Source: Thermoanaerobaculia bacterium | Lineage (GTDB): Bacteria; Acidobacteriota; Thermoanaerobaculia; UBA5066 | Direction: 5' to 3' | DNA: 47,782 nt | NCBI GenBank assembly: GCA_038245905.1 | Contig: JBBRRY010000030.1 | Location: 1-47,782, forward strand | Part shown: positions 1,893 through 46,379 of the stretch, piece by piece | Layout of the letters: each line of letters starts with the position of its first letter | Numbering within the stretch: position 1 is the stretch's first letter | Program-made: the position numbers and the translations under genes | The notes under the pieces: generated by a model | What the model saw: the letters and a program-made list of their open reading frames with translations, nothing else | What the model was told of the DNA's origin: nothing | Databases searched by the model: none

Positions 1893-2806
1893 GAACCCGC
1901 CCCCGGGGTCCCGGTCACCCGAACGTCGAACACGGGCGCCTCGACGAGATGGAACGTCGCCGAGGCGAGTCCGACGCGCCCGCCGCTCGCGTCGATCCGG
2001 TCGAGGATGCCCGTGAAAAGGCGATCCTTGACGCTCCGCCGCTTCTTGTAGTCGACGACGTAGCGCAACGTGTACTCGATCCAGTTGTCGTTCGCGACCA
2101 TCGTGAGGACCGGTCCGACCTGCGCGTCCTCGATCAGGTACTTCTTCACAAGCTCGTCCCAGGAATTCCGCGCGATTTGGGTGAACTCACCCACGACCTC
2201 GTGCGCGACGCCGAGGAACAGCTCGCGCGCGAGCGCGCGGTCGCTCCCGTATTTCACGGGGATCACGATCTCGTCCCAGAGGAAGGGAAAGTCGGCCGAG
2301 TAGTTGAAGACCGGCTCCTTGAAGACGAAGCTGTTCGCGACGCGCACGATCCGCCCGTTGTAGAGGTCGGCGTTGACCCACTGGCCGCACTCCATGAGCG
2401 TCGTCCGGAGAATCCCGATGTCGATCACGTCGCCCTTGATTCCTCCGAGCTGCACGCGGTCGCCCGGGCTGTAGAACCCGCCGAAGGAGACCGCGCCCCA
2501 CCCCGCCACGCTCGCGATCACCTCCTGGAGCGCGAACGCGATCCCCGCGCCCGCGACGCCGAACGCGACCGTGAGCTGGCCGAGCTTGCTGCTGAAGACG
2601 ATGGACGCGAGGAGGAGCGCCGCGAGGTAGCCGAACAGCGTCACGAACTTGCGGGCCCGGTAGCGGGCGTCACCCGTTTGCAACGTCCTTCCGACGAGCC
2701 TCTTCAGGAGGTGGACGCCCGCCGCGATGACGAGGAAGCCCAGCCCGAGCATCACGAGCTTTCCCGTGACCGGGTCGAAGAGAATCTTCTTGAAGGATTC
2801 TTCCAT
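1889..2806 (-). CDS. mscS: Small-conductance mechanosensitive channel (MscS family)
   Basis: GVAGAGIAFALQ, PGDRVQLGGIKGDVIDIG and PVFNYS motifs. Start reset to MEESFKK. Confidence 0.9.
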   Translation of the reverse strand: MEESFKKILFDPVTGKLVMLGLGFLVIAAGVHLLKRLVGRTLQTGDARYRARKFVTLFGYLAALLLASIVFSSKLGQLTVAFGVAGAGIAFALQEVIASVAGWGAVSFGGFYSPGDRVQLGGIKGDVIDIGILRTTLMECGQWVNADLYNGRIVRVANSFVFKEPVFNYSADFPFLWDEIVIPVKYGSDRALARELFLGVAHEVVGEFTQIARNSWDELVKKYLIEDAQVGPVLTMVANDNWIEYTLRYVVDYKKRRSVKDRLFTGILDRIDASGGRVGLASATFHLVEAPVFDVRVTGTPGAGS

Positions 2807-2810
2807 TTCT

Positions 2811-4565
2811 TCAGGCCTTCTCGGCCGGAGGTTTCGGCGCCGGCGCGGGGCCGACGCCGAGGAACCGGAACGCCGGCGCCTCGTACGTCTTCGGCAGGTG
2901 CTCCCCGGGGATCGTGACCTGGTTGCCGTCGCGCAGGGCGCCGTAGTGGGGCGACATGATCTCGATTCCCGCCTCGTTGAACTTGTCCTGGATGTTCGCG
3001 TGAAGGTCCGAGTACGTCGCCGCCATCCGGCCGGCCTTGTCCGTGAAGGCGTTGATCTCGTACGTGACGTAAAAGTCATCGAGGCTCGTCTGGAGGACGA
3101 ACGGCGGCGGGTGCTCGAGGAGATCGCCGGTCATGTAGGCCGCTGCGAGGAGCGCGCCATGAACGTCCCGCCAGGGCGCGTCGTAACCGATCGTGACGGA
3201 CGTGTTCAGGATGAGAGCCCGCTCGCGGGCCGACGTCGAGTAGTTGAGGATGTGGCTCCCCAGGACCATTCCGTTCGGGATCGTGATGTGGACGTTCTTG
3301 ATCGTGCGGACGCGGGTCACGAGAAGGCTCTTCTCGATCACGTCGCCGACGGTGTCGGCGATCTTCACGCGGTCCCCGACGCGGAACGCCTTCGTGTACG
3401 TCAGGATGACGCCCGCGACGATGTTCGAGATCGCCGAGCTCGACGAGAGCGAGAAGAGGACCCCGAGGAACAGCGAGACGCCCTTGAACGCCGCCGACTG
3501 CGAGCCGGGGATGTAGGGAAACGCCACGACGGCGGCGAAGGCGATGACGAGAAAACGGGCGATGTCGTACGTGGGGGTCGCCCAGTCCCGCTCGAACCCC
3601 GCGATCGCGATCGTCCCGTTCTCGATTTCGGTGAAAAAGAGCCTCACGAGCTTGAGGCCCCAGCGCGTGAGGATGATGATCACGACGAGAAAGAAGAGAT
3701 CCGGGAGATACACCACGAAGGACCACCAGATCGACTTGAGCGGGGTCGCGACGTAGCCGAAGAGCGGACCCACGAGCCCACGGGTCCACGGGAAGAAGCT
3801 CAGGGCGATGGGGACGTATACGAGGACCGCCGTCACGAGGATGGCGAGCCGGATGGCACGCACGAGCCCCTTGAGCGCGTCGGTCATGCGCGTCGCGCTC
3901 ACGATCTCGAGTTTCTGAATCCGGATCGCGGGGATCCGCGTCCCCCTCCACATTTCGAGCTTTCCGAGGACCGCAGGCGTCCCCCTCCTGAGACCGACGA
4001 AGAGGAAAATGAGGAGGACCGTTACGAGCAGGACCCAGAGGCCGTCGACGACGAGCTGCTTGACGCCGATCTCGCGCCTGGCCCTGTTCACGGCCCGCTC
4101 GATCACCCGGGCACGGCTCTCGGCGAGCGCGCGCCGGTCCACCCCGGCCGCCGCCGCCTCGGAGTCCGAAACGCTCGCGAGAACTTTCTCGCCGGCGAGG
4201 ATGTCGGTCGTCGTCTCGTTGTCGCCGACCGTCAGGACGATGTCGCCGGCAAAAGCCTGGCGCGCGAGCTTCCGCAGGCGCTGCGCAGCCGCGGCCGCCC
4301 GGTCCTCGGCGCTGAACGGTCCGAGTTGGCCGGAGACGTGGAACAGGGTCTTGCCGTCGAAGGCGAGAGGCGCTCCGGCAGCCGTGGGGGAGGGCGTTGC
4401 CGCCGCAGGACTGCCGGTCGCGGGCGGGAGCGTCGTCGCCTCCGGGGCCGCAAGACCGCGGCCCGAGGGCAAGAGAGCCGCTGCCAGCACGGCGGCCCCG
4501 AGCAAGGCGCTGGACGGCCTGCGCCGCGTGACTCCACGGGCGAACACGGCTTGCGACGCTATCAC
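2811..4565 (-). CDS. mscS: MscS-family channel with large periplasmic N-terminal domain
   Basis: Signal-like N-terminus, then ISNIVAG, FRVGDRVKIADTVGDV, IPNG and GIEIMSP. GTG start overlaps the stop of the upstream mscS. Confidence 0.88.
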   Translation of the reverse strand: MIASQAVFARGVTRRRPSSALLGAAVLAAALLPSGRGLAAPEATTLPPATGSPAAATPSPTAAGAPLAFDGKTLFHVSGQLGPFSAEDRAAAAAQRLRKLARQAFAGDIVLTVGDNETTTDILAGEKVLASVSDSEAAAAGVDRRALAESRARVIERAVNRARREIGVKQLVVDGLWVLLVTVLLIFLFVGLRRGTPAVLGKLEMWRGTRIPAIRIQKLEIVSATRMTDALKGLVRAIRLAILVTAVLVYVPIALSFFPWTRGLVGPLFGYVATPLKSIWWSFVVYLPDLFFLVVIIILTRWGLKLVRLFFTEIENGTIAIAGFERDWATPTYDIARFLVIAFAAVVAFPYIPGSQSAAFKGVSLFLGVLFSLSSSSAISNIVAGVILTYTKAFRVGDRVKIADTVGDVIEKSLLVTRVRTIKNVHITIPNGMVLGSHILNYSTSARERALILNTSVTIGYDAPWRDVHGALLAAAYMTGDLLEHPPPFVLQTSLDDFYVTYEINAFTDKAGRMAATYSDLHANIQDKFNEAGIEIMSPHYGALRDGNQVTIPGEHLPKTYEAPAFRFLGVGPAPAPKPPAEKA

Positions 4566-38312: not shown

Positions 38313-39995
38313 TCAGGGAGAACGTCGGGCCGCGCCGGGCACGGCAAGCGCGGCAACAGCCACCTTGCCGTGGAGAATCTCGCCGGCCTTGACCTGCGCC
38401 TGACGGGACATGTCGATCGACTCGCCGAGGATCCGGGCCATCTCCTGCGGAGCGTGGAAGCCCATTGAATTTTCAGCAGCCACGGTGTCGAGGCGCCACT
38501 GCGCGGCCCGCTGCAGCTCGCCCAGCTCCTTGATCGCCGGGTCCTTCTCCACGATCGCGCGCCACGAGGCCAGCAGGTTCGCCTTCGTCTCGGCGGCCAG
38601 CTTCTTCTCCTGGTCCTCCTTGCCGAGCTTCTGGAAGTCCGCGCTCTTCTCCAGTGAATCCTTCGCCTTCGCGGCGGCGCCCGCGCGGTTCTGGTCGTCG
38701 TAAGGCTTCCGCACGGCCACGATGGCGTCGATCATCGCGACCGCCGCCTGGCCCGCCCGCGACATGAGGGCGAAGTGACGATCCTGGATCGCCTCGACCC
38801 GGCCCTTCAGCTCCTCGTCGCTGTAGGGGTGGCAGGTCGCGCAGGAGCGGTTGACCGAGAGGAGCGGGCTGCCGACCCAGTGCTCCGAGATCTTCTGGGC
38901 GCCGTCGCGCTTGTAGGGCATGTGGCAGTCGGCGCAGGCCACGCCGCTTCTCGCGTGAATGCCCTGGCTCCACATCTCGAACTCGGGGTGCTGGGCCTTC
39001 AAGACCTCCATGCCGGTCTCGGCGTGCGTCCAGTCCTTGAAACGCTGCCCCTTCACCTGCATGCCGTCGTAGAGGTGCTCCATCTCCTCGACCTTGAGCC
39101 CCTCGGCCCACGGGAAGAAAACGGTCGTGCCCTTGCCGCAGAAATACTCCACGTGGCACTGGCCGCAGACGTAGGAGCGCTTCTCCTGGCGGCTCGCGTC
39201 CACGTTCGGATCGTAGGCGCGTGCGCGGCCGGTCTTGCGCCAGCGCTCGATGCTCGGGAGATGCGGCACCTCGGCGGTGGAAGAGGCCAGCTTCTGGATG
39301 GCGGTGATGAAGGCCGGCCGGGTGATGCGCAGCTCCATCGATCCGGGGACGTGGCAGTCGACGCACGAGACCGGATGGGCCTTGCCGCCGGTGAGCTGTT
39401 CCAGCTGCTTGTGGGTGTCCCAGTAGCTGAGCTCGCTGACCGCCGCCAGGCCCTTCTGGATCTGCTCGGCCTCGCTCGCTTGAGGCGCGGCTTCCTTCCC
39501 GAGCTTCCGGTAGAGCGGCATGATCGAGGCGTGGCAGTGCATGCAGTTGCCCGACTGCTTGTTCTCGGCGGGCACGTTGCGCTTCGTGTTCTCCTGGTCG
39601 AAGAGCATGAAGGCGTGGCCGCGGCGGTCGCGGTAGTCGACCGCGAACAGGTACCCGGCGAAGATCCGTGACAGCCACGGGTCACGCGCGGCCTTCTGGG
39701 GCGGCACGACGCCCTCGGCCCCGCCCCACCCGCCGCCGTACTTCGTGTGGGTCGGCTCGGACGTGCGCTTGTAGCCGTCGAACTCGCGCGGCCAGTTCGT
39801 GCCCCACTTGGCCGGGTCCACGTCGTTCTCCGTCACCTCGACGAGCTTGACGTAGGAGTTCTTCGCTTCCTGCTTTCGCTGGGCGATGTTGACGAGCAGG
39901 GCGGCCACTCCGAGGGCCCCGAGGGCAAAGGCGGCTGCGACGAGGGTGATGAGCAGCCCGCGCTTCTTCGGGGGGGCCGGGTTCTCTGCGGACAT
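38313..39995 (-). CDS. nrfA: Pentaheme ammonia-forming cytochrome c nitrite reductase (CXXCH active-site type)
   Basis: Five heme motifs CMHCH, CVDCH, CGQCH(VEY), CADCH and CATCH, plus KAQHPEFE and [17 protein letters not shown]. Confidence 0.93.
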
Positions 39996-40036: not shown

Positions 40037-40495
40037 TCAGCGGGCGTGGCCGACAGAAGCGTGGCAGCGGACGCAGGAGACGTCGCCGCCATGCGTTATC
40101 GAATCCACTAGCTCGGAGTGGCAGCGGCGGCAGTTGGCCTCGACGACTGCCGAGCTTTCGGGCCGGGCCCGGATGACGTCCGGATAGCCGCCGAGCGTGA
40201 AGGCGAGGGAGTGGTGCCAGCCGTTCAGGGCCTTGACGACGTATTTCGAGATCAGGCCGTCCGGCGTGTGGCAGTCGTTGCAGGTCGCGACGTTGTGATG
40301 AGGAGCGGTCTGCCAGCCGGCGTAGTGCGCGCTCATCGCGTGACAGTTGTTGCACGTGGCGGGATCGTTCCCCATGTAGGAAGAGCCCTTCGCGTAGTAG
40401 AAGGCGTAGCCCGCCATCCCGAATGCGAGGCCGGCCGCGGCGGCTGCGAGCGTCAACGCGACCCCAACGAGAGAAAAGCCGCGGCTCGTCGTCAT
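40037..40495 (-). CDS. nrfH: Tetraheme cytochrome c nitrite reductase small subunit (quinol dehydrogenase)
   Basis: One TM segment; CNNCHAM, CNDCH, CRRCH and CVRCH motifs. Confidence 0.93.
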
Positions 40496-40514: not shown

Positions 40515-43500
40515 TCACGGACGGAATCCGTTCGCGACGAGAGGCTTCGCGTTCGTCTGGGGCACGTGGCAGGCCGTGCAGACGTACCGGCTGCCCGCGA
40601 TCTCGGCGCGCTTCACGGCCGGAGCGTTTCTAAGGTCGACGTAGTGGCTCGCCGGGATTGGCACGGGGCCGCCGGGCTCGGGCTTGTCGAGGGCGTGGCA
40701 CGTCAGGCACGCGTTGTCGGCCCTGGTGATCGGGAGGATGCCGTCGACCGTGTGCGGAATGAGCGGCGGTGCGGAGGCGAACAGGCGCGGAAGGAGCTTG
40801 CCGTCGCCGGGGTCCTTCGTCACGTACTCGTAGGATTTCGGGGCGGGGACGCCCGTGACGGCGGATTTTTCGAGGCCGAGCGTCTTGTCGGCAACGCCCT
40901 TCGTCTCCCCGGCCCCCGCGCCCGCCGTGAAGAAGAACGCGAAGAGGGCCGCGGCCACGACTTTCGTGACCTTCACGGCGCACTTCTTGAAATCGGTTTG
41001 CTTCGAGATCGGGCACGTGGCGTCGAGGGTGATCTTGTTGATGAGGATCGACTCGTCGAACCAGGGAACGTACACGAGGCCGCGCGGCGTCCTGTAGCGG
41101 CCGGCCGTCTCCACGGCCACCTGGATCTTCCCGCGGCGCGACTCGATCCAGGCGACGTCGTTCCGCTTGAGGCCGCGCTGGGCGGCGTCTTTCTCGTGCA
41201 TGTAGAGGAGCGCGGCCGGCATGGCCGCGTGGAGCTCCGGAACACGCCGCGTCATCGTCCCCGAGTGCCAGTGCTCCAAGACACGGCCCGTAGAGAGCCA
41301 CAGGTCGTACACGGCGTCCGGGATCTCGGGCGGCGCCGCGTACGGGCGGAAGAAAATCTTCGCCTTGCCCGCGAGGGCGACTTTCGCGGGATCCGTGACC
41401 TTCTCGAGGTCTCCCTTCGGGAGCGCCTTCATGGCCTTCCCGTAGAAGTCGAAGCCGCTGCCCTTTCTCGCGTAGGGGTCGTAGGCTTCGTTGAAGCGCC
41501 AGAGCGTCTCCTTGCCGTCGACGACCGGCCACCTAAGGCCGCGCACGTCGTCCGCCATGTAGCGGTCGAAGGGCGCGAGATCGTGCCCGTGCCCGCGCCC
41601 GAAGCCGGCGTACTCCTCGAAGAGGGCCTTCTCGGGGAACCACGCGGCGCCGAGCTGGGCGGCGGTCGCGTTTGCGTGTCCCTTCGCGACGGGATCCGGC
41701 CAGAGCACCTTCTTGTTCGCGGGCGTGGCGAAAAGAACGTCGTAGAGCGTGCTGTCGGGCGAGTGGCCGAGCGCCGCGGCGCCTTCGAGGATCGAGGGGA
41801 GCCTTCCGTCCGTGAAGCCCTCGGCCTTCAGGCCCGGGAGAGGCTGCTCGCCCCAGACCTCGCGCAGCTTGAACCGCTTCGAGAACTCGAGAATCTGCCA
41901 GAGGTCGGTCTTCGCGTCGCCCGGCGCGGGGACCTGCTGCCGCCAGAGCTGCGTGCGGCGCTCGGAGTTGCCGTAGCCGCCCCATTTCTCGAAAATCATC
42001 GCGCTCGGCAGGATCAGGTCGGACACCTTCGCGCTGATACCCGGGTAGGCGTCCGACGTGACGAGGAACGTGCCCGGCTGCCGCGCGGCGGCGAGCCAGT
42101 GGTTGTTGTTCGCGGTGGACTGAAACGGGTTCGTGACCTGGATCCAGAGCCACTTGAGCTTCCCGTCCTCGAGGTCCCGCATCATTTCTGTGATGTGGCT
42201 CCCGACCTTCGGGTTGATCGTCTTCTGCGGGAGCTTCCAGTGCTCCTCGGCGTGGGCGCGGTGCTCGGGATTGTCGACCGTCATGTCGGCCGGGAGGCGG
42301 TGCGCGAACGTGCCGACTTCGCGCGCGGTGCCGCACGCGGACGGCTGGCCTGTGAGCGAGAAGGCGCCGCTGCCCGGCTTCGCCTGCTTGCCCGTGAGGA
42401 GGTGGACCATGTACGCCTGCTCGTTCACCCACGTCCCGCGCGTGTGCTGGTTGAAGCCCATCGTCCAGTACGACACGGCCTTGCGCTTCGGGTCGGCGTA
42501 GAGGTTGGCCAGCTCCTTGAGCTTTCGCTTGTGCTCTTCGAGCGGCTCGTCCGCGTCGCCCCTCGTGAGGCTGGCGACGAAGTCGAGCGTGTAGGGCTCG
42601 ACGGCCTTCTTGAAGTCCTCGAAGGTGATGAGCCAGTGGGCAGCCGCTCCGGCGGCGTCCTTCTGCGGGCGCGTATGCGTGACGGAGGGGTCGAGGCCGC
42701 GGCCGATCGCCTCCTCCTTCGTGAGGACGACGGTGCGCTGATGGCTTCGCGTGTCCTTCTCGGAGTCGAGGGCGTGGTCTTCGCCGGGGCGCATCCCGAA
42801 GCCGATGTCGGCGGGGCCAGTCGCGAAGACGCAGTGCTTCTCGACGAAGTCCTTGTCGACAGCGCCGCGCAGGACGATCTCTCTCGCGATGTAGTTCCAG
42901 ATCGCGAGGTCCGTGTTCGGCTTGAAGACGATCTCGGTGTCCGCGCCGGCCGACGTGGGCGTCGTGTACGTCGTGAGGTTGAAGATCCGATACTCGGGGC
43001 GCGCGAGGCGGGCGTCGACGATGCGCGACCAGAGGATCGGGTGCATCTCGGCCATGTTCGCGCCCCACGTCACCACGGCGTCCGTCTTCTCGATGTCGTC
43101 GTAGCAGCCCGAGGGCTCGTCGATGCCGAACGTCTGCATGAAGCCGGTGACGGCCGAGGCCATGCAGTGCCGGGCGTTCGGGTCGAGGTTGTTGCTGCGC
43201 CAGCCCGCCTTCACGAGCTTCGCGGCCGCATAGCCCTCCATGATCGTGTACTGGCCGGAGCCCATCACGCCCACGCCGCTCGGGCCGAGCTCCGCATGAA
43301 CCCTCTTGAACTGAGCTTCCATCTCCTGGAACGCGCGCTCCCAGCTCACGGGGAAGAAGTCGCCGTTCTTGTCGAACTTCCCGTCCTTCATGCGGAGGAG
43401 GGGCTTCGTGAGGCGGTCCTCGCCATAGAGGATCTTCGCGTTCGCGTAGCCCTTTATGCAGAGGAGGCCGCGGTTCACGGGCGCGTCCGGGTCACCCTTC

Positions 43501-43715
43501 ACGGCCACGACTCGTTCCGCTTTCGTCCCGACGAGAATCCCGCAGCCTGTCCCGCAGAAGCGGCAGACGCTCTTGTCCCAGGCCACGCCCGCATCCAGGG
43601 GCGCCTGCCCGGCGGCCGCGAAGGCGTCCTCTGCGACCGGGATTCCCGCGGCGGCGGCCGCCGCGAGCGCGGCGCTGCGCTTCAGAAGCTCCCGGCGTGT
43701 GCTGCTCTGGTTCAT
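40515..43715 (-). CDS. napA: Periplasmic nitrate reductase NapA fused in frame to diheme NapB
   Basis: Tat motif [16 protein letters not shown] [4Fe-4S], NARHCMAS Mo ligand, and NapA C-terminus [19 protein letters not shown]. Continues without a stop into PPLIPH...CLTCH...SHY...[11 protein letters not shown] (NapB). Confidence 0.93.
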
Positions 43716-43969
43716 GTTCCCTCCGCGTCTTCCTCGAGATCCCCGAAGTAATGGCAGACGAGCTCGGCCGAGAGAAGACCCGGCAAGGCCTGGATGAGCC
43801 TCAGGCCGTCCTCCTGCTCTTCGGTTGTCCCGGATTCCTGCGTGACCACGATGCGGCCCCGGGCCGCGTCCGTGAACTGGACCTCGACGCCGGGCAGAAC
43901 TCCGAGCCGCTGCACGCCTTCCGCGAGCCCCGAGGGCGCGACGTGGACGACGATGCTCGAGATATTCAC
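43712..43969 (-). CDS. napD: NapD chaperone (start could extend to 44020)
   Basis: NISSIVV...LPGVEV...GRIVVTQE...[12 protein letters not shown] pattern. ATGA overlap with napA. Confidence 0.88.
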
Positions 43970-43979
43970 AGCGTTCGAG

Positions 43980-44020
43980 ATCTTAGTCCCCGGGTAGGGT
44001 CCCCGTATGACGGATGTCAT
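43980..44020 (-). promoter_or_regulatory. Putative CRP/FNR-family class II promoter of the nap-nrf operon
   Basis: Palindrome ATGAC-N4-GTCAT (44007-44020) centred about 41 bp upstream of the start site implied by the -10 TAAGAT (43985-43980). Confidence 0.6.
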
Positions 44021-44106: not shown

Positions 44107-44138
44107 TTGACAGTCTTATAGAAAGTGTCGACACTTTC
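44107..44138 (+). promoter_or_regulatory. AbiE promoter with perfect 18-bp palindromic operator
   Basis: TTGACA (44107-44112)-17 nt-GACACT. GAAAGTGTCGACACTTTC (44121-44138) overlaps the -10. Confidence 0.75.
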
Positions 44139-44142
44139 CCAC

Positions 44143-44742
44143 ATGAACAGCCGGGAGAGGGTAGCGAAGCTCGCGAAGGGGCGCGGCGTGTTCAAGGCGA
44201 GTGAGGTCCATGACCTCGGCATCCACACGCAGGTCCTGACCCGGCTCGAAAAGGAAGGCGTGATCGAGCGCGTCGCCCGTGGCCGGTACAGGCTCGCTCT
44301 CAGCGAGGTCACGGAGCACCACGGCCTCGCCCTAGCTGCCAGCGTCGCGCCGAAGGGCGTCGTGTGCCTCCTCTCGGCCCTTCGCTTCCACGACGTCACG
44401 ACTCAGAACCCATTTGAGGTCTGGCTCGCGGTCGAGCGGCGTTCGCGCATGCCTCGCACCCCGTACCCCCCGCTTCGCGTCTTTCGATTCTCGGGCCGCG
44501 CCTTCACGAGCGGAGTAGAGACGCACAAGATCGAGGGCCAGCGTGTCCGCGTCTACAGCCTCGCGAAGACGATCGCCGACCTCTTCAAGTATCGAAACAA
44601 GGTTGGGATCGACGTGGCGGTCGAGGCGCTGAGTGAGTCGTGGCGCGCCCGGAAGATTAGGCCAAGCGACATCGATCCGTACGCCCGGATCTGCCGTGTC
44701 AAGAAGCTCATCCGGCCCTACCTCGAGGCGCTCACCGCATGA
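44143..44742 (+). CDS. Type IV toxin-antitoxin AbiEi-family antitoxin
   Basis: N-terminal wHTH (LTRLEKEGVIERVARGRYRL), VVCLLSAL.FH, KTIADLFKYRNKVGIDVAVEAL. Confidence 0.9.
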   Translation: MNSRERVAKLAKGRGVFKASEVHDLGIHTQVLTRLEKEGVIERVARGRYRLALSEVTEHHGLALAASVAPKGVVCLLSALRFHDVTTQNPFEVWLAVERRSRMPRTPYPPLRVFRFSGRAFTSGVETHKIEGQRVRVYSLAKTIADLFKYRNKVGIDVAVEALSESWRARKIRPSDIDPYARICRVKKLIRPYLEALTA

Positions 44743-45540
44743 GCGGGGCGGACACGGCTCTGGCTCAGTCGATCCAGACGCGCATCGTGAGCCACGCGCT
44801 GGGCGGGCGAGACGGTCCGCACAACTCGCGACGCCGACCTGCTGGGCTATGGCGTACTCACCCAGGACGAAATCATCAGGATCTTCCGGGAGATCGCCTC
44901 GGCGCCGAGCATCCCGGGTGACGGCGTTGTGTTCCTGCCAGAGACCGTGAGGGTGTCGCCCATCCAGGAGGCTGACCAGTACGGCGGCGAACGAGTGACG
45001 TTCGAAGGCCGACTCGGCAAGGTGAAGCTTCCGCTACGGGTGGATGTCGGGATCGGCGACGCCGTGTACCCGCCGCCCGAATGGCTGGAGTACCCGTCGC
45101 TCCTGAACGTCCCGAGGCCGGTGCTTAGGGCCTATCAACCTGAGACCTCGATCGCGGAAAAGGTCCATGCGATGGTCGATCGGGGCGAAACGAATAGCCG
45201 CATGAAGGACTACTTCGACATTGCCGAGCTCGCTCGCATCCGCGTGTTTGACGGCAGCGCGCTCTCCCGGGCCCTCCGAGAGACCTTTGAACGACGGGGG
45301 ACGCCAGTCCCGGCTTCGCCCAAAGGTCTGTCAATCGCATTCGGCCGCGATCCCGAAAAGCAGCGGCAGTGGGAGGGATTCGTGACGAGGAACCGGGTGA
45401 GCGCGACGAGGGGATTCGAAGTCTCGGTCATGAGCGTGGCCCGGTTTGTTCAGCCGGTGCTGATCGCGGTTTCGAGGGGCGAATCTCTCATCAGGAGTTG
45501 GCCTGCGGGCGGCCCATCGTGGATCCCGGAAGGCGAGTAG
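44739..45540 (+). pseudogene. AbiEii-family nucleotidyltransferase toxin, frameshifted by a deletion near 44799
   Basis: MSGADTALAQSIQTRIVSHA in one frame. WAGETVRTTRDADLLG...DVGIGD...AEK...NSRMKDYFD in another frame from 44800. The ERxLxRL...KG segment is absent. Confidence 0.85.
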
Positions 45541-45547
45541 GCCCTCC

Positions 45548-46207
45548 TCAGGCCGAGAGCGCCGAGACCGCCCGCGCCACGACCGCGAAGTGGCACACAG
45601 CCGCCGCGATCACGAGGGCGTGGAAAATCTCGTGGTAGCCGAACACGTTCGGGAAGGGGTCCGGGCGGCGGAGGGCGTAGACGGCGGCACCGAGGCTGTA
45701 GACGACGCCGCCCGTTGCCAGGAGCACGACGGCGCCGGTCCCGAGCGCGGCCTTCAGCGCCGGCAGGAGCGGAACGGCGGCCCAGCCGAGGAGGACGCAG
45801 ACGAGCGCCACGAGCGCTTTCGGCGCGCGCACCCACGCGATGGACATCACGATCCCGAGGAGCGCCCCCGCCCACACGATGCCGAGAAAGATCCAGCCGC
45901 TGCGGCTGCCGAGGAGGAAGCTGAGGGGCGTGTACGTCCCCGCGATGAGCAGGAAGATCGCGGAGTGATCCAGCCGGCGCATGACCGCGCGGCCCTTCTC
46001 CGACCAGTTCCGGCGGTGGTAAATCGCGCTGACGGCGAGGAGCGACACGAGGGAGATTCCGTAGATGAGCGCGCCGAAGCGGGCGCGCGCCCCCGAGGCG
46101 AGGAACACGAGGATGGCCCCCGCGACGAACGCGACGAACGCCGCCACCTCGTGGAGGACGCCGCGCAGGAGCGGCTTGGCGTGAGACGGATTCTCGGGAG
46201 ATCCCAT
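45548..46207 (-). CDS. Hemolysin III / PAQR family membrane protein (TrhA-like)
   Basis: SAIYH, RRLDHSAIFLLIAGTYTP and GYHEIFH motifs. Confidence 0.93.
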   Translation of the reverse strand: MGSPENPSHAKPLLRGVLHEVAAFVAFVAGAILVFLASGARARFGALIYGISLVSLLAVSAIYHRRNWSEKGRAVMRRLDHSAIFLLIAGTYTPLSFLLGSRSGWIFLGIVWAGALLGIVMSIAWVRAPKALVALVCVLLGWAAVPLLPALKAALGTGAVVLLATGGVVYSLGAAVYALRRPDPFPNVFGYHEIFHALVIAAAVCHFAVVARAVSALSA

Positions 46208-46379
46208 GGCACTCTCGATCATGCACCCGGCGGGGGCCGCGCGCGATGACCCGCGCCTGTTCCTGCGCTGCTCCAGGCACCCAGTAATGGCCATCATTAG
46301 GAACTTGAGCGAAAATCCCCGCAAATGCTCCTAGCTATGTCCGCCTCCGCTGCCGCCGAATACTAGTTAGGCCCCGGAA

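Follow-up and report, generated by a model that had tools for sequence, protein, structure and literature searches.

The 47,782-nucleotide contig JBBRRY010000030.1 of a Thermoanaerobaculia bacterium (assembly GCA_038245905.1), referred to here in its entirety as the window, carries on its minus strand, at positions 40515 to 43715, a single open reading frame (ORF) in which the nitrate reductase subunits NapA and NapB are joined. Judged from the sequences compared below, this napA-napB ORF is a real fusion under selection and not an assembly error, and the linker between the two subunits is, by alignment, the hydrophobic core and cleavage region of a NapB Sec-type signal peptide whose n-region is gone. 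We give a somewhat better than even chance to the reading that fused NapAB is a polyprotein, which would be cleaved into NapA and NapB by way of the general secretory (Sec) translocase, a signal peptidase and the twin-arginine translocase (Tat). The pairing of NapA, which is exported by Tat in a folded and cofactor-loaded state, with NapB, which passes unfolded through Sec and receives its haem in the periplasm, is the textbook case for two export routes and separate genes. A conserved fusion with a Sec signal in mid-chain raises the question of how two translocases and a signal peptidase handle one chain, in an order opposite to the only one known for Sec and Tat.

The ORF encodes 1066 residues and a stop codon, with no internal stops. 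It consists of a twin-arginine signal, a full NapA (residues 5-919), a 17-residue uncharged hydrophobic stretch ending in AGA↓G (here and below, an arrow follows the cleavage motif), and a complete dihaem NapB. Its parts are as follows.

40515..43715, minus strand: napA-napB fused ORF (translation, Pfam, NCBIfam).
43608..43715, minus strand: Tat signal peptide, approximately residues 1-36, with a putative cleavage position (motif read from the translation).
40962..43607, minus strand: NapA catalytic part, residues 37-918 (Pfam, NCBIfam, alignment, PDB chain ends).
40974..40976, minus strand: in-frame GTG (Val914), candidate internal start of a rival model, with only AAGAAG upstream (codon reading).
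40911..40961, minus strand: internal signal-peptide-like hydrophobic and cleavage region (h/c region), residues 919-935, ending in Ala-x-Ala, with a predicted signal peptidase I site after A935 (alignment with the separate NapB signals of relatives G022 and G028).
40518..40910, minus strand: mature NapB part, residues 936-1066, dihaem (Pfam NapB and PDB matches).

The original prediction, made from the letters of this stretch, described one 1066-residue ORF with a Tat signal and a complete NapA that runs without a stop into a diheme NapB; translation, Pfam and NCBIfam all bear this out. Pfam places Molybdop_Fe4S4 at residues 45-97, Molybdopterin at 101-614 and Molydop_binding at 805-913. The NCBIfam NapA equivalog NF010055 matches residues 5-919 over positions 3-830 of its 830 with 1346.4 bits (cut-off 904), which makes the protein a NapA, and TIGR01706 gives 1310.6 bits (cut-off 930.55). 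Near the N-terminus is the Tat motif STRRELLK, with the twin arginine at residues 7-8, followed by the cysteines of the 4Fe-4S cluster (C51/C54/C58/C86) and the Mo-ligand motif RHCMAS with C184; we take these motifs to have their customary NapA identities, and the five cysteines are invariant in a 33-row alignment. The NapB half matches Pfam NapB (PF03892) at residues 964-1065 with 97.8 bits (cut-off 25.1), contains the haem motifs CLTCH at 1003 and CTACH at 1046, and has PDB matches to 3ML1_B (E=1.2e-16), 1OGY_B (E=2.9e-16) and 1JNI_A. The enterobacterial NapB equivalog NF008609 scores 63.4 bits, under its cut-off of 230, and the NapB of the window is thus a member of the family but not an enterobacterial equivalog.

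The boundaries of the two natural proteins can be placed closely. Solved NapA chains (3ML1_A, 2NYA_A and 9PXT_A) terminate at residues aligned to K918/V919, while residue 14 of the mature NapB in 1OGY_B is aligned to residue 954 of the fusion, so that the 1OGY NapB starts within a few residues of the predicted cut. Only the 17-residue stretch, bar a few mature NapB N-terminal residues, therefore lies between the two. The genome, which is 96% complete, has no second napA or napB, and both functions must come from the fused gene. Like canonical NapAB (Cupriavidus necator, 3ML1/3O5A; Rhodobacter sphaeroides, 1OGY; Escherichia coli NapA, 2NYA), the fusion has a Tat-signal NapA with a 4Fe-4S cluster and molybdenum bis(molybdopterin guanine dinucleotide) (Mo-bisMGD), a dihaem NapB, and napD upstream. 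However, canonical NapAB is made from two genes as two precursors, each with its own N-terminal signal, whereas the fusion is one ORF in which a NapB signal lacking its n-region is internal, after the NapA C-terminus.

The junction was recovered from independent assemblies. In metagenome run X1, the probable source sample, one contig spans 40515-41500 with 0 differences, and in runs X2 and X3, from another study, a 693-nucleotide contig spans 40515-41135 with 29 substitutions and 0 gaps; no insertions or deletions relative to the window were listed in any of the four metagenome runs. Neither the stop nor the frameshift that the original prediction had proposed to look for at the junction was seen. 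The linker substitutions in the X2/X3 contig (T930A, G934R, G936A) are those of an independently assembled 1066-residue protein, P0002.

The fused lineage, a small uncultured group, belongs to the Acidobacteriota, class Thermoanaerobaculia, and all of its genomes are metagenome-assembled genomes (MAGs). This NapB is present in 11 of 61 related genomes, and in 8 of the 11 it is fused in frame to NapA, in seven cases within genus g1 (G000, G001, G002, G014, G015, G019, G024) and in one within genus g4 (G031), so the predicted single protein is not unique to the assembly in which it was noticed. Six of the eight copies, from two genera, are full length and retain the Tat motif, the Fe-S cysteines, RHCMAS and two CxxCH motifs. 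The copy in G019 is cut by a contig end, and that in G024 (locus L018, ORF 2777-4393; protein P0122) is only 538 residues long, with a mosaic NapA that has four large in-frame deletions and keeps the equivalents of window-protein residues 1-76, 232-349, 424-507, 618-672 and 854-1066; either the assembly is wrong here or the gene has decayed in an unusual way. Two genomes, G022 and G028, have split napA and napB. The last, G021 (L004), differs from the fused reading by one extra G at the junction (AAGGGTGG versus AAGGTGG), about 30 nucleotides past the DFKK codons, which shifts napB to the +1 frame, so that napA continues into a long Arg-rich out-of-frame tail. The G021 linker is without a lipobox and has an Arg within the hydrophobic core, and the extra G may be a sequencing error, a fresh pseudogene mutation or a real frameshift site.

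Wider searches found no fusion outside one family of the Thermoanaerobaculia. Of 401 genomes sampled from the class, 39 have a NapB match, and none of the 21 new loci is fused, while the nine matches without loci have open frames of 533 residues or less. Among named genome contigs, 7 of 24 loci are fused, all in the same genomes as the fused relatives above, and in the Holophagales and Anaeromyxobacter a separate napB lies directly after napA or overlaps it. Among 32 metagenome loci, three are fused, 21 are split and eight have no NapA end within the locus. In large protein collections, NapA and NapB domains occur together in three clusters (P0002, P0003 and P0004) among the best 120 of 1124 matches, and a search for long NapB-bearing proteins found five, all of this lineage; among the best 150 of 959 matches, there were no NapB representatives longer than 326 residues, and broad protein searches gave no fused clusters outside this lineage among the matches listed. 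The name that the databases give to fused P0004 is 'nitrate reductase catalytic subunit NapA', and where fused genes are labelled simply NapA, as under this one name, NapB is missed in these genomes.

Three apparent fusions were rejected during these searches. In G336, a 1103-residue open frame is a high-GC accident, as the napA has a stop, and the Anaeromyxobacter loci L032 and L034 are cases of the same kind. In L032, L034 and L038 (Anaeromyxobacter; G336), the napB frame is open for 834-1103 codons upstream, over napA in another frame; in high-GC genomes, the length of an open frame alone can falsely mimic a fusion. A further metagenome contig, L062 (NapB match 1201-1581), encodes a NapB 83% identical to that of the window directly after a napD-like frame, with no napA between the two within 1200 nucleotides, which may represent a napD-napB arrangement or a napA deletion.

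It is scarcely credible, given this distribution, that the ORF is a mis-assembly or a gene that recently lost a stop codon on its way to becoming a pseudogene. All of the sources are MAGs, and the frameshift of a single nucleotide at the junction in G021 and the mosaic NapA of G024 would fit such a view. However, independent assemblies and samples agree, no catalytic or haem motif is missing from the six full-length copies, which come from two genera, a 96%-complete genome has no other napA or napB, and NapA is 0.87-0.92 identical among fused copies. The assembly error or one-off stop loss that was among the four options of the original prediction is contradicted by an intact fusion in six related genomes of two genera, in metagenome contigs and in a second sample.

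The origin of the linker can be traced by comparison with the split relatives of the same genus (G022, G028 and the metagenome locus L061), whose NapB is approximately 79-83% identical and has the same lipobox and Ser/Pro-rich tether; in G022, nrfH-nrfA follow downstream. The lipobox consensus is [LVI][ASTVI][GAS]C at the end of the hydrophobic core. The separate NapB precursors of G022 (MRNAFRSP-AAAALGVVFTAGALLAC↓VSTSSPSKK) and G028 (MRSATRSP-..AALVAC↓ASTPSPSKK) begin with lipoprotein signals, and that of L061 (MTRSITSSSFPAALAAVLLASC↓ATAPPAAKKE) also has a lipobox. Fused relatives read KVTK-VATALLAAVLAGALLAC↓ASTSSPSK.., with the lipobox and Ser/Pro-rich tether of the split NapBs, and these shared elements, together with the alignment to the split signals, suggest that the linker is the signal peptide of NapB itself minus the n-region. 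In the split forms, a stop follows ..KV(T/A)KA, and is followed by a spacer and then by a Met and basic n-region belonging to NapB, whereas the fusion is without these. From Lys to Cys, the linker of fused G015 is 17 residues long, which is also the length of the stretch from the end of MRNAFRSP to the Cys in split G022. Given this equal spacing, the fusion most probably arose by a deletion of the last codon or stop of napA, the intergenic spacer and the NapB n-region (Met plus basic residues). The Lys-rich C-terminus of NapA (net +3), which is conserved, sits where the basic n-region would be.

In split G022 (L009) and G028 (L010), the napA-napB spacer is about 70 nucleotides long and AG-rich, with GAAAG/AGAAG runs that are unusual in a GC-rich genome; in L061 it is 15 nucleotides long and contains GGGAGG. 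The separate NapBs of other families in the class (L047, L049, L052, L054, L063, L037) also commonly have lipobox-type signals (..SLSC↓G, ..LLGC↓S, ..AMSC↓A, ..LVSC↓T), and a lipoprotein NapB thus seems to be the norm in the Thermoanaerobaculia.

Although the sequence of the linker drifts, its features as a signal are preserved. Each of the 11 distinct fused linkers contains 12-24 consecutive uncharged residues and, at one shared alignment position, a cleavage motif, which is a lipobox Cys in seven (LLAC, LTAC, LVAC, FGAC) and a small-x-small motif in four. The linker of the window has no cysteine and is not a lipoprotein signal; by rule, it reads as an internal segment with an n-region KKCAVKVTK, a hydrophobic core, and a putative cleavage site A-G-A↓G. 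Window-type variants have neither the Cys nor the tether (AGA↓G in the window, ARA↓A in P0002, AWA↓A in G024), and in these three only position -2 varies (G, R, W), while the G031/P0004 site reads LFA↓A. Change limited to position -2 is the pattern expected of a signal peptidase I site. The h/c region has a mean pairwise identity of 0.47 among eight fused proteins and 0.53 among the seven of the genus type, against 0.87 and 0.92 for NapA and 0.76 and 0.86 for the NapB core, and in the eight fused proteins it is the second most variable part after the NapB tether, which takes insertions and deletions. Core hydrophobicity, taken as the best 10-residue Kyte-Doolittle window, matches that of authentic NapB signals from the class (median 2.65, range 2.50-2.98, n=10 for fused linkers; median 2.58, range 2.31-3.43, n=9 for split NapB N-terminal signals, with 3 of 12 loci not parsed). 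A motif and a core that are kept despite such drift point to selection on signal function, not on sequence. A lipobox, moreover, is meaningful only if the segment sits in the membrane N-in/C-out, with the NapB side periplasmic.

These features bear directly on the possibility that Tat alone exports an uncleaved covalent NapA-NapB, with folded NapA dragging unfolded apo-NapB along, haem being added afterwards and the hydrophobic stretch serving as a linker or a peripheral membrane contact. There is a single Tat signal and NapD is present, and the distance from K918 to the first conserved NapB motif (34 to approximately 51 residues) could plausibly allow NapB to reach its docking site. However, such export gives no account of a signal-grade core and a lipobox Cys (7 of 11) or Ala-x-Ala (4 of 11) at one alignment position in a linker that otherwise drifts and takes insertions and deletions, it has no use for a lipobox that requires N-in/C-out membrane placement, and Tat is said to reject unfolded or hydrophobic segments. 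We consider it very unlikely, and the option of a Tat-exported covalent NapAB fails in the same place, as the persistence of the signal-grade hydrophobic core and lipobox is left unexplained.

Internal initiation would account for the kept hydrophobic core and cleavage site equally well. Here NapB would mainly be made as a separate protein from an in-frame start within the end of napA, the GTG of Val914, with the read-through fusion as a tolerated or minor by-product. The GTG at 40976, preceded by AAGAAG, is present as predicted, at least one in-frame GTG lies within AV(K/R)(V/I)TK(V/A) at all eight fused junctions, and the product predicted from Val914 reads as a perfect n/h/c Sec signal. However, the codon of Val914 is GTG in five and GTC in three of the eight fused genes, with the same pattern in the split relatives, and the upstream AAGAAG consists of universal NapA Lys-Lys codons without the GGAG core found before napAB (GGAGG) and nrfA (AAGGAG). 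Furthermore, as napA has no stop codon, any ribosome translating it continues into napB and produces the fused chain, whose fate would still have to be explained. The nested start proposed in the original prediction gains no specific support, with no position-conserved start codon and a GTG/GTC pattern shared with split genes, and we regard it as unlikely.

A third arrangement would be an uncleaved membrane-spanning protein in which the hydrophobic stretch is a permanent transmembrane helix, with either NapA cytoplasmic and NapB periplasmic (a Sec signal-anchor) or NapA periplasmic and Tat tail-anchored and NapB cytoplasmic. A protein with a single hydrophobic segment between its two domains has, in formal terms, a single-pass topology, and Tat tail-anchored proteins do exist (PMC10924467). 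However, the Tat motif and napD are conserved, and cores of 12-24 uncharged residues accompanied by cleavage motifs typify signal peptides, not anchors. Either orientation would also part NapA from its electron donor NapB by the membrane or leave a CxxCH domain in the cytoplasm, a compartment in which c-type haem is not attached. This arrangement is highly improbable. The tail-anchored proteins (HybO, HyaA, FdnH, HybA and newer examples) resemble a post-cleavage NapA in having an N-terminal twin-arginine signal and a hydrophobic segment near the C-terminal end of the Tat domain, but their helix ends the protein with a short cytoplasmic tail, whereas in the fusion a signal-peptidase motif ends the helix and a 131-residue haem domain follows (PMC10924467). 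With 131 residues including both haem sites beyond the hydrophobic stretch, the fusion does not belong to this class, and NapA receives no mention in that survey of tail-anchored proteins.

The original prediction listed four options without choosing among them. The best supported is a dual-pathway polyprotein that signal peptidase cuts, since the segment retains its hydrophobic core and cleavage motif even as its sequence drifts. In this polyprotein reading, the whole fused polypeptide would be translated, and the Lys-rich C-terminus of NapA would stand in for the missing n-region, allowing the internal core to engage Sec in the N-in/C-out orientation. The unfolded NapB half would then be threaded into the periplasm by Sec and either freed by signal peptidase I (in the window type, at AGA↓G) or modified and cut by Lgt/LspA (in most relatives, at an L-x-A-C lipobox), after which the cytochrome c maturation system would add two haems to NapB in the periplasm. 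The NapA half would stay cytoplasmic, held at the membrane by the signal-peptide remnant, until it had received Mo-bisMGD and the 4Fe-4S cluster under the control of NapD, and would then be exported folded by Tat. The 17-residue remnant might be pulled through or removed by a signal-peptide peptidase, both of which are general concepts. The end product would be an ordinary NapA and NapB pair in a strict 1:1 ratio, from one polyprotein by two export routes, with the known order of Sec before Tat reversed. The machinery needed is present: TatC, LspA and two type I signal peptidases are all encoded in the genome, along with four matches to cytochrome c assembly proteins. The fuller version of this reading, in which Sec exports the C-terminal half (as a lipoprotein in most relatives), signal peptidase I or II severs the chain and Tat later exports the N-terminal half with its remnant tail, is in our view an even-handed proposition, with as much chance of being wrong as right.

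Several considerations weigh against the polyprotein. The cleavage, the order of export and the fate of the remnant are all inferred, and the cleavage sites are predicted from the -3/-1 and lipobox rules. Because the lipobox forms are near relatives of one another (NapA 0.92 identical), shared ancestry instead of selection may account for some of the conservation, and the inserted nucleotide in G021 and the mosaic NapA of G024 suggest that some copies may be decaying. Finally, NapA after cleavage would bear a C-terminal hydrophobic tail placed N-in/C-out; hydrophobic segments are generally thought to arrest Tat transport, and no precedent was found for Tat exporting such cargo.

Some parts of the proposed scheme have counterparts elsewhere. 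In function, the closest precedent is probably the fbcH gene of Bradyrhizobium japonicum, which, as reportedly described by Thony-Meyer et al. in about 1991, is said to encode a cytochrome b/c1 polyprotein with an internal signal-like segment before a c-type cytochrome, from which signal peptidase gives two subunits. The same features can be read in the fusion, namely one ORF and an internal signal-like segment before a c-type cytochrome, with a putative separation. However, the upstream half of fbcH is said to be a Sec-inserted cytochrome b, whereas that of the fusion is a folded, cofactor-loaded Tat substrate. A comparison for the use of two translocases is provided by the dual Sec/Tat membrane proteins, in which, as in the model for the fusion, one chain needs both translocases and a cofactor domain is folded before passing through Tat (PMC5449189). 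As described there, this class has an even number of Sec helices before an internal twin-arginine motif, one Tat-dependent helix and a C-terminal cofactor domain; the Sec helices come first, the internal twin arginine then hands over to Tat, and the product is uncut (PMC5449189). The fusion, by comparison, starts with the Tat signal and its domain, has its Sec-type signal further on within the chain, on their C-terminal side, and is predicted to be cleaved in two. With its twin arginine at residues 7-8, no preceding helices and a reversed order of elements, it falls outside the dual Sec/Tat class (Tooke 2017). That paper mentions neither NapA nor cytochrome c (PMC5449189).

No description of a NapA-NapB fusion or of a lipoprotein NapB was found in the literature, a search that did not cover subscription journals or supplements, where those of Tat surveys could list such proteins. 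The fusion is apparently a lineage-restricted, undescribed variant of NapAB. Two points go beyond what the original prediction had anticipated: in most fused relatives the signal is of the lipoprotein type, for signal peptidase II, and one genus contains both split and fused forms. As fused and split versions are approximately 80% identical within that genus and could be swapped, the question is directly testable, and the fusion is a natural test case for the co-operation of Tat, Sec and signal peptidase on one chain. It could also reveal whether Tat exports cargo with a C-terminal hydrophobic remnant. If the polyprotein reading is true, this NapA would be the first example of a Tat cargo that Sec and signal peptidase tether and subsequently release, and the lipobox forms would contain the first internal lipoprotein signal peptide in a bacterial polyprotein.

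The history of the fusion was examined with trees of the C-terminal part of NapA and of NapB, in which the genus-g1 clade has support of 100/100 and the split pair G022 and G028 (support 98/99) lies within an unresolved g1 polytomy. A single clade of fused g1 sequences is not rejected by the approximately unbiased test (p-AU 0.48), nor is a single clade of g1 and G031 (p-AU 0.47 for DNA, 0.42 for protein), and one or two fusion events are therefore each possible. A clade of all fused rows is rejected (p-AU 0.0003), but trivially, since the split rows nest in the tight g1 clade. The trees gave no decision between fusion and fission. However, the outgroups are all split, and G022 and G028 keep an outgroup-like ..K(A)-stop ending; on this evidence, the split state is probably ancestral. 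Split L061 shares its tether sequence with fused P0003/L058, which makes the fused and split forms close neighbours.

The fused gene is part of a compact cluster, with the minus-strand order napD, napA-napB fusion, nrfH/napC-type gene, nrfA. The other members are as follows.

43712..44020, minus strand: napD (102 residues), whose stop overlaps the napAB start (Pfam NapD 63.9 bits, cut-off 28).
40037..40495, minus strand: nrfH/napC-type tetrahaem quinol dehydrogenase (152 residues, 4 CxxCH), 19 nucleotides downstream of the fusion (Pfam Cytochrom_NNT 33.1 bits, cut-off 24.1).
38313..39995, minus strand: nrfA, pentahaem cytochrome c552 nitrite reductase (Pfam Cytochrom_C552 373 bits; start ATG, with AAGGAG upstream).

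NapD belongs to a chaperone family that binds the NapA Tat signal peptide (PMC3712460). By Pfam, the gene immediately upstream of the fusion is napD in the window, L015 and L036, and in L019 a napD-like N-terminus was recognized by eye only; no napD-like ORF of at least 90 residues was seen upstream of the fusion in L014. The nap-nrf cluster of the window is without napC, napG and napH. With nrfHA on the same strand and only 19 nucleotides after the nap genes, this absence suggests that nitrate and nitrite reduction may share a single quinol dehydrogenase of the NrfH type. The nrfHA genes adjoin the nap genes in the window and in split G022, while fused L014 and L036 have no adjacent nrfHA but unrelated convergent genes after the fusion (Pfam), and no haem-rich ORF was found downstream of the fusion in L015 or L019. 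In ecological terms, the cluster marks a compact pathway, napD-napAB(-nrfHA), by which Thermoanaerobaculia of sediments and soils would convert nitrate to ammonium.

A crude scan of the genome found 135 open frames of at least 250 residues with a Tat-like N-terminus, among which CxxCH occurs only in the NapAB fusion and in one apparently cytoplasmic nucleotide-binding protein; the design of the fusion thus occurs just once in this genome. Immediately upstream of the nap operon, at 44125..45540 on the plus strand, are genes for an AbiEi antitoxin-like protein (205 residues) and an AbiEii nucleotidyltransferase toxin (203 residues), the AbiEii match being restricted to profile positions 75-222 of 238. 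A HlyIII-family gene is found at 45548..46324 on the minus strand.

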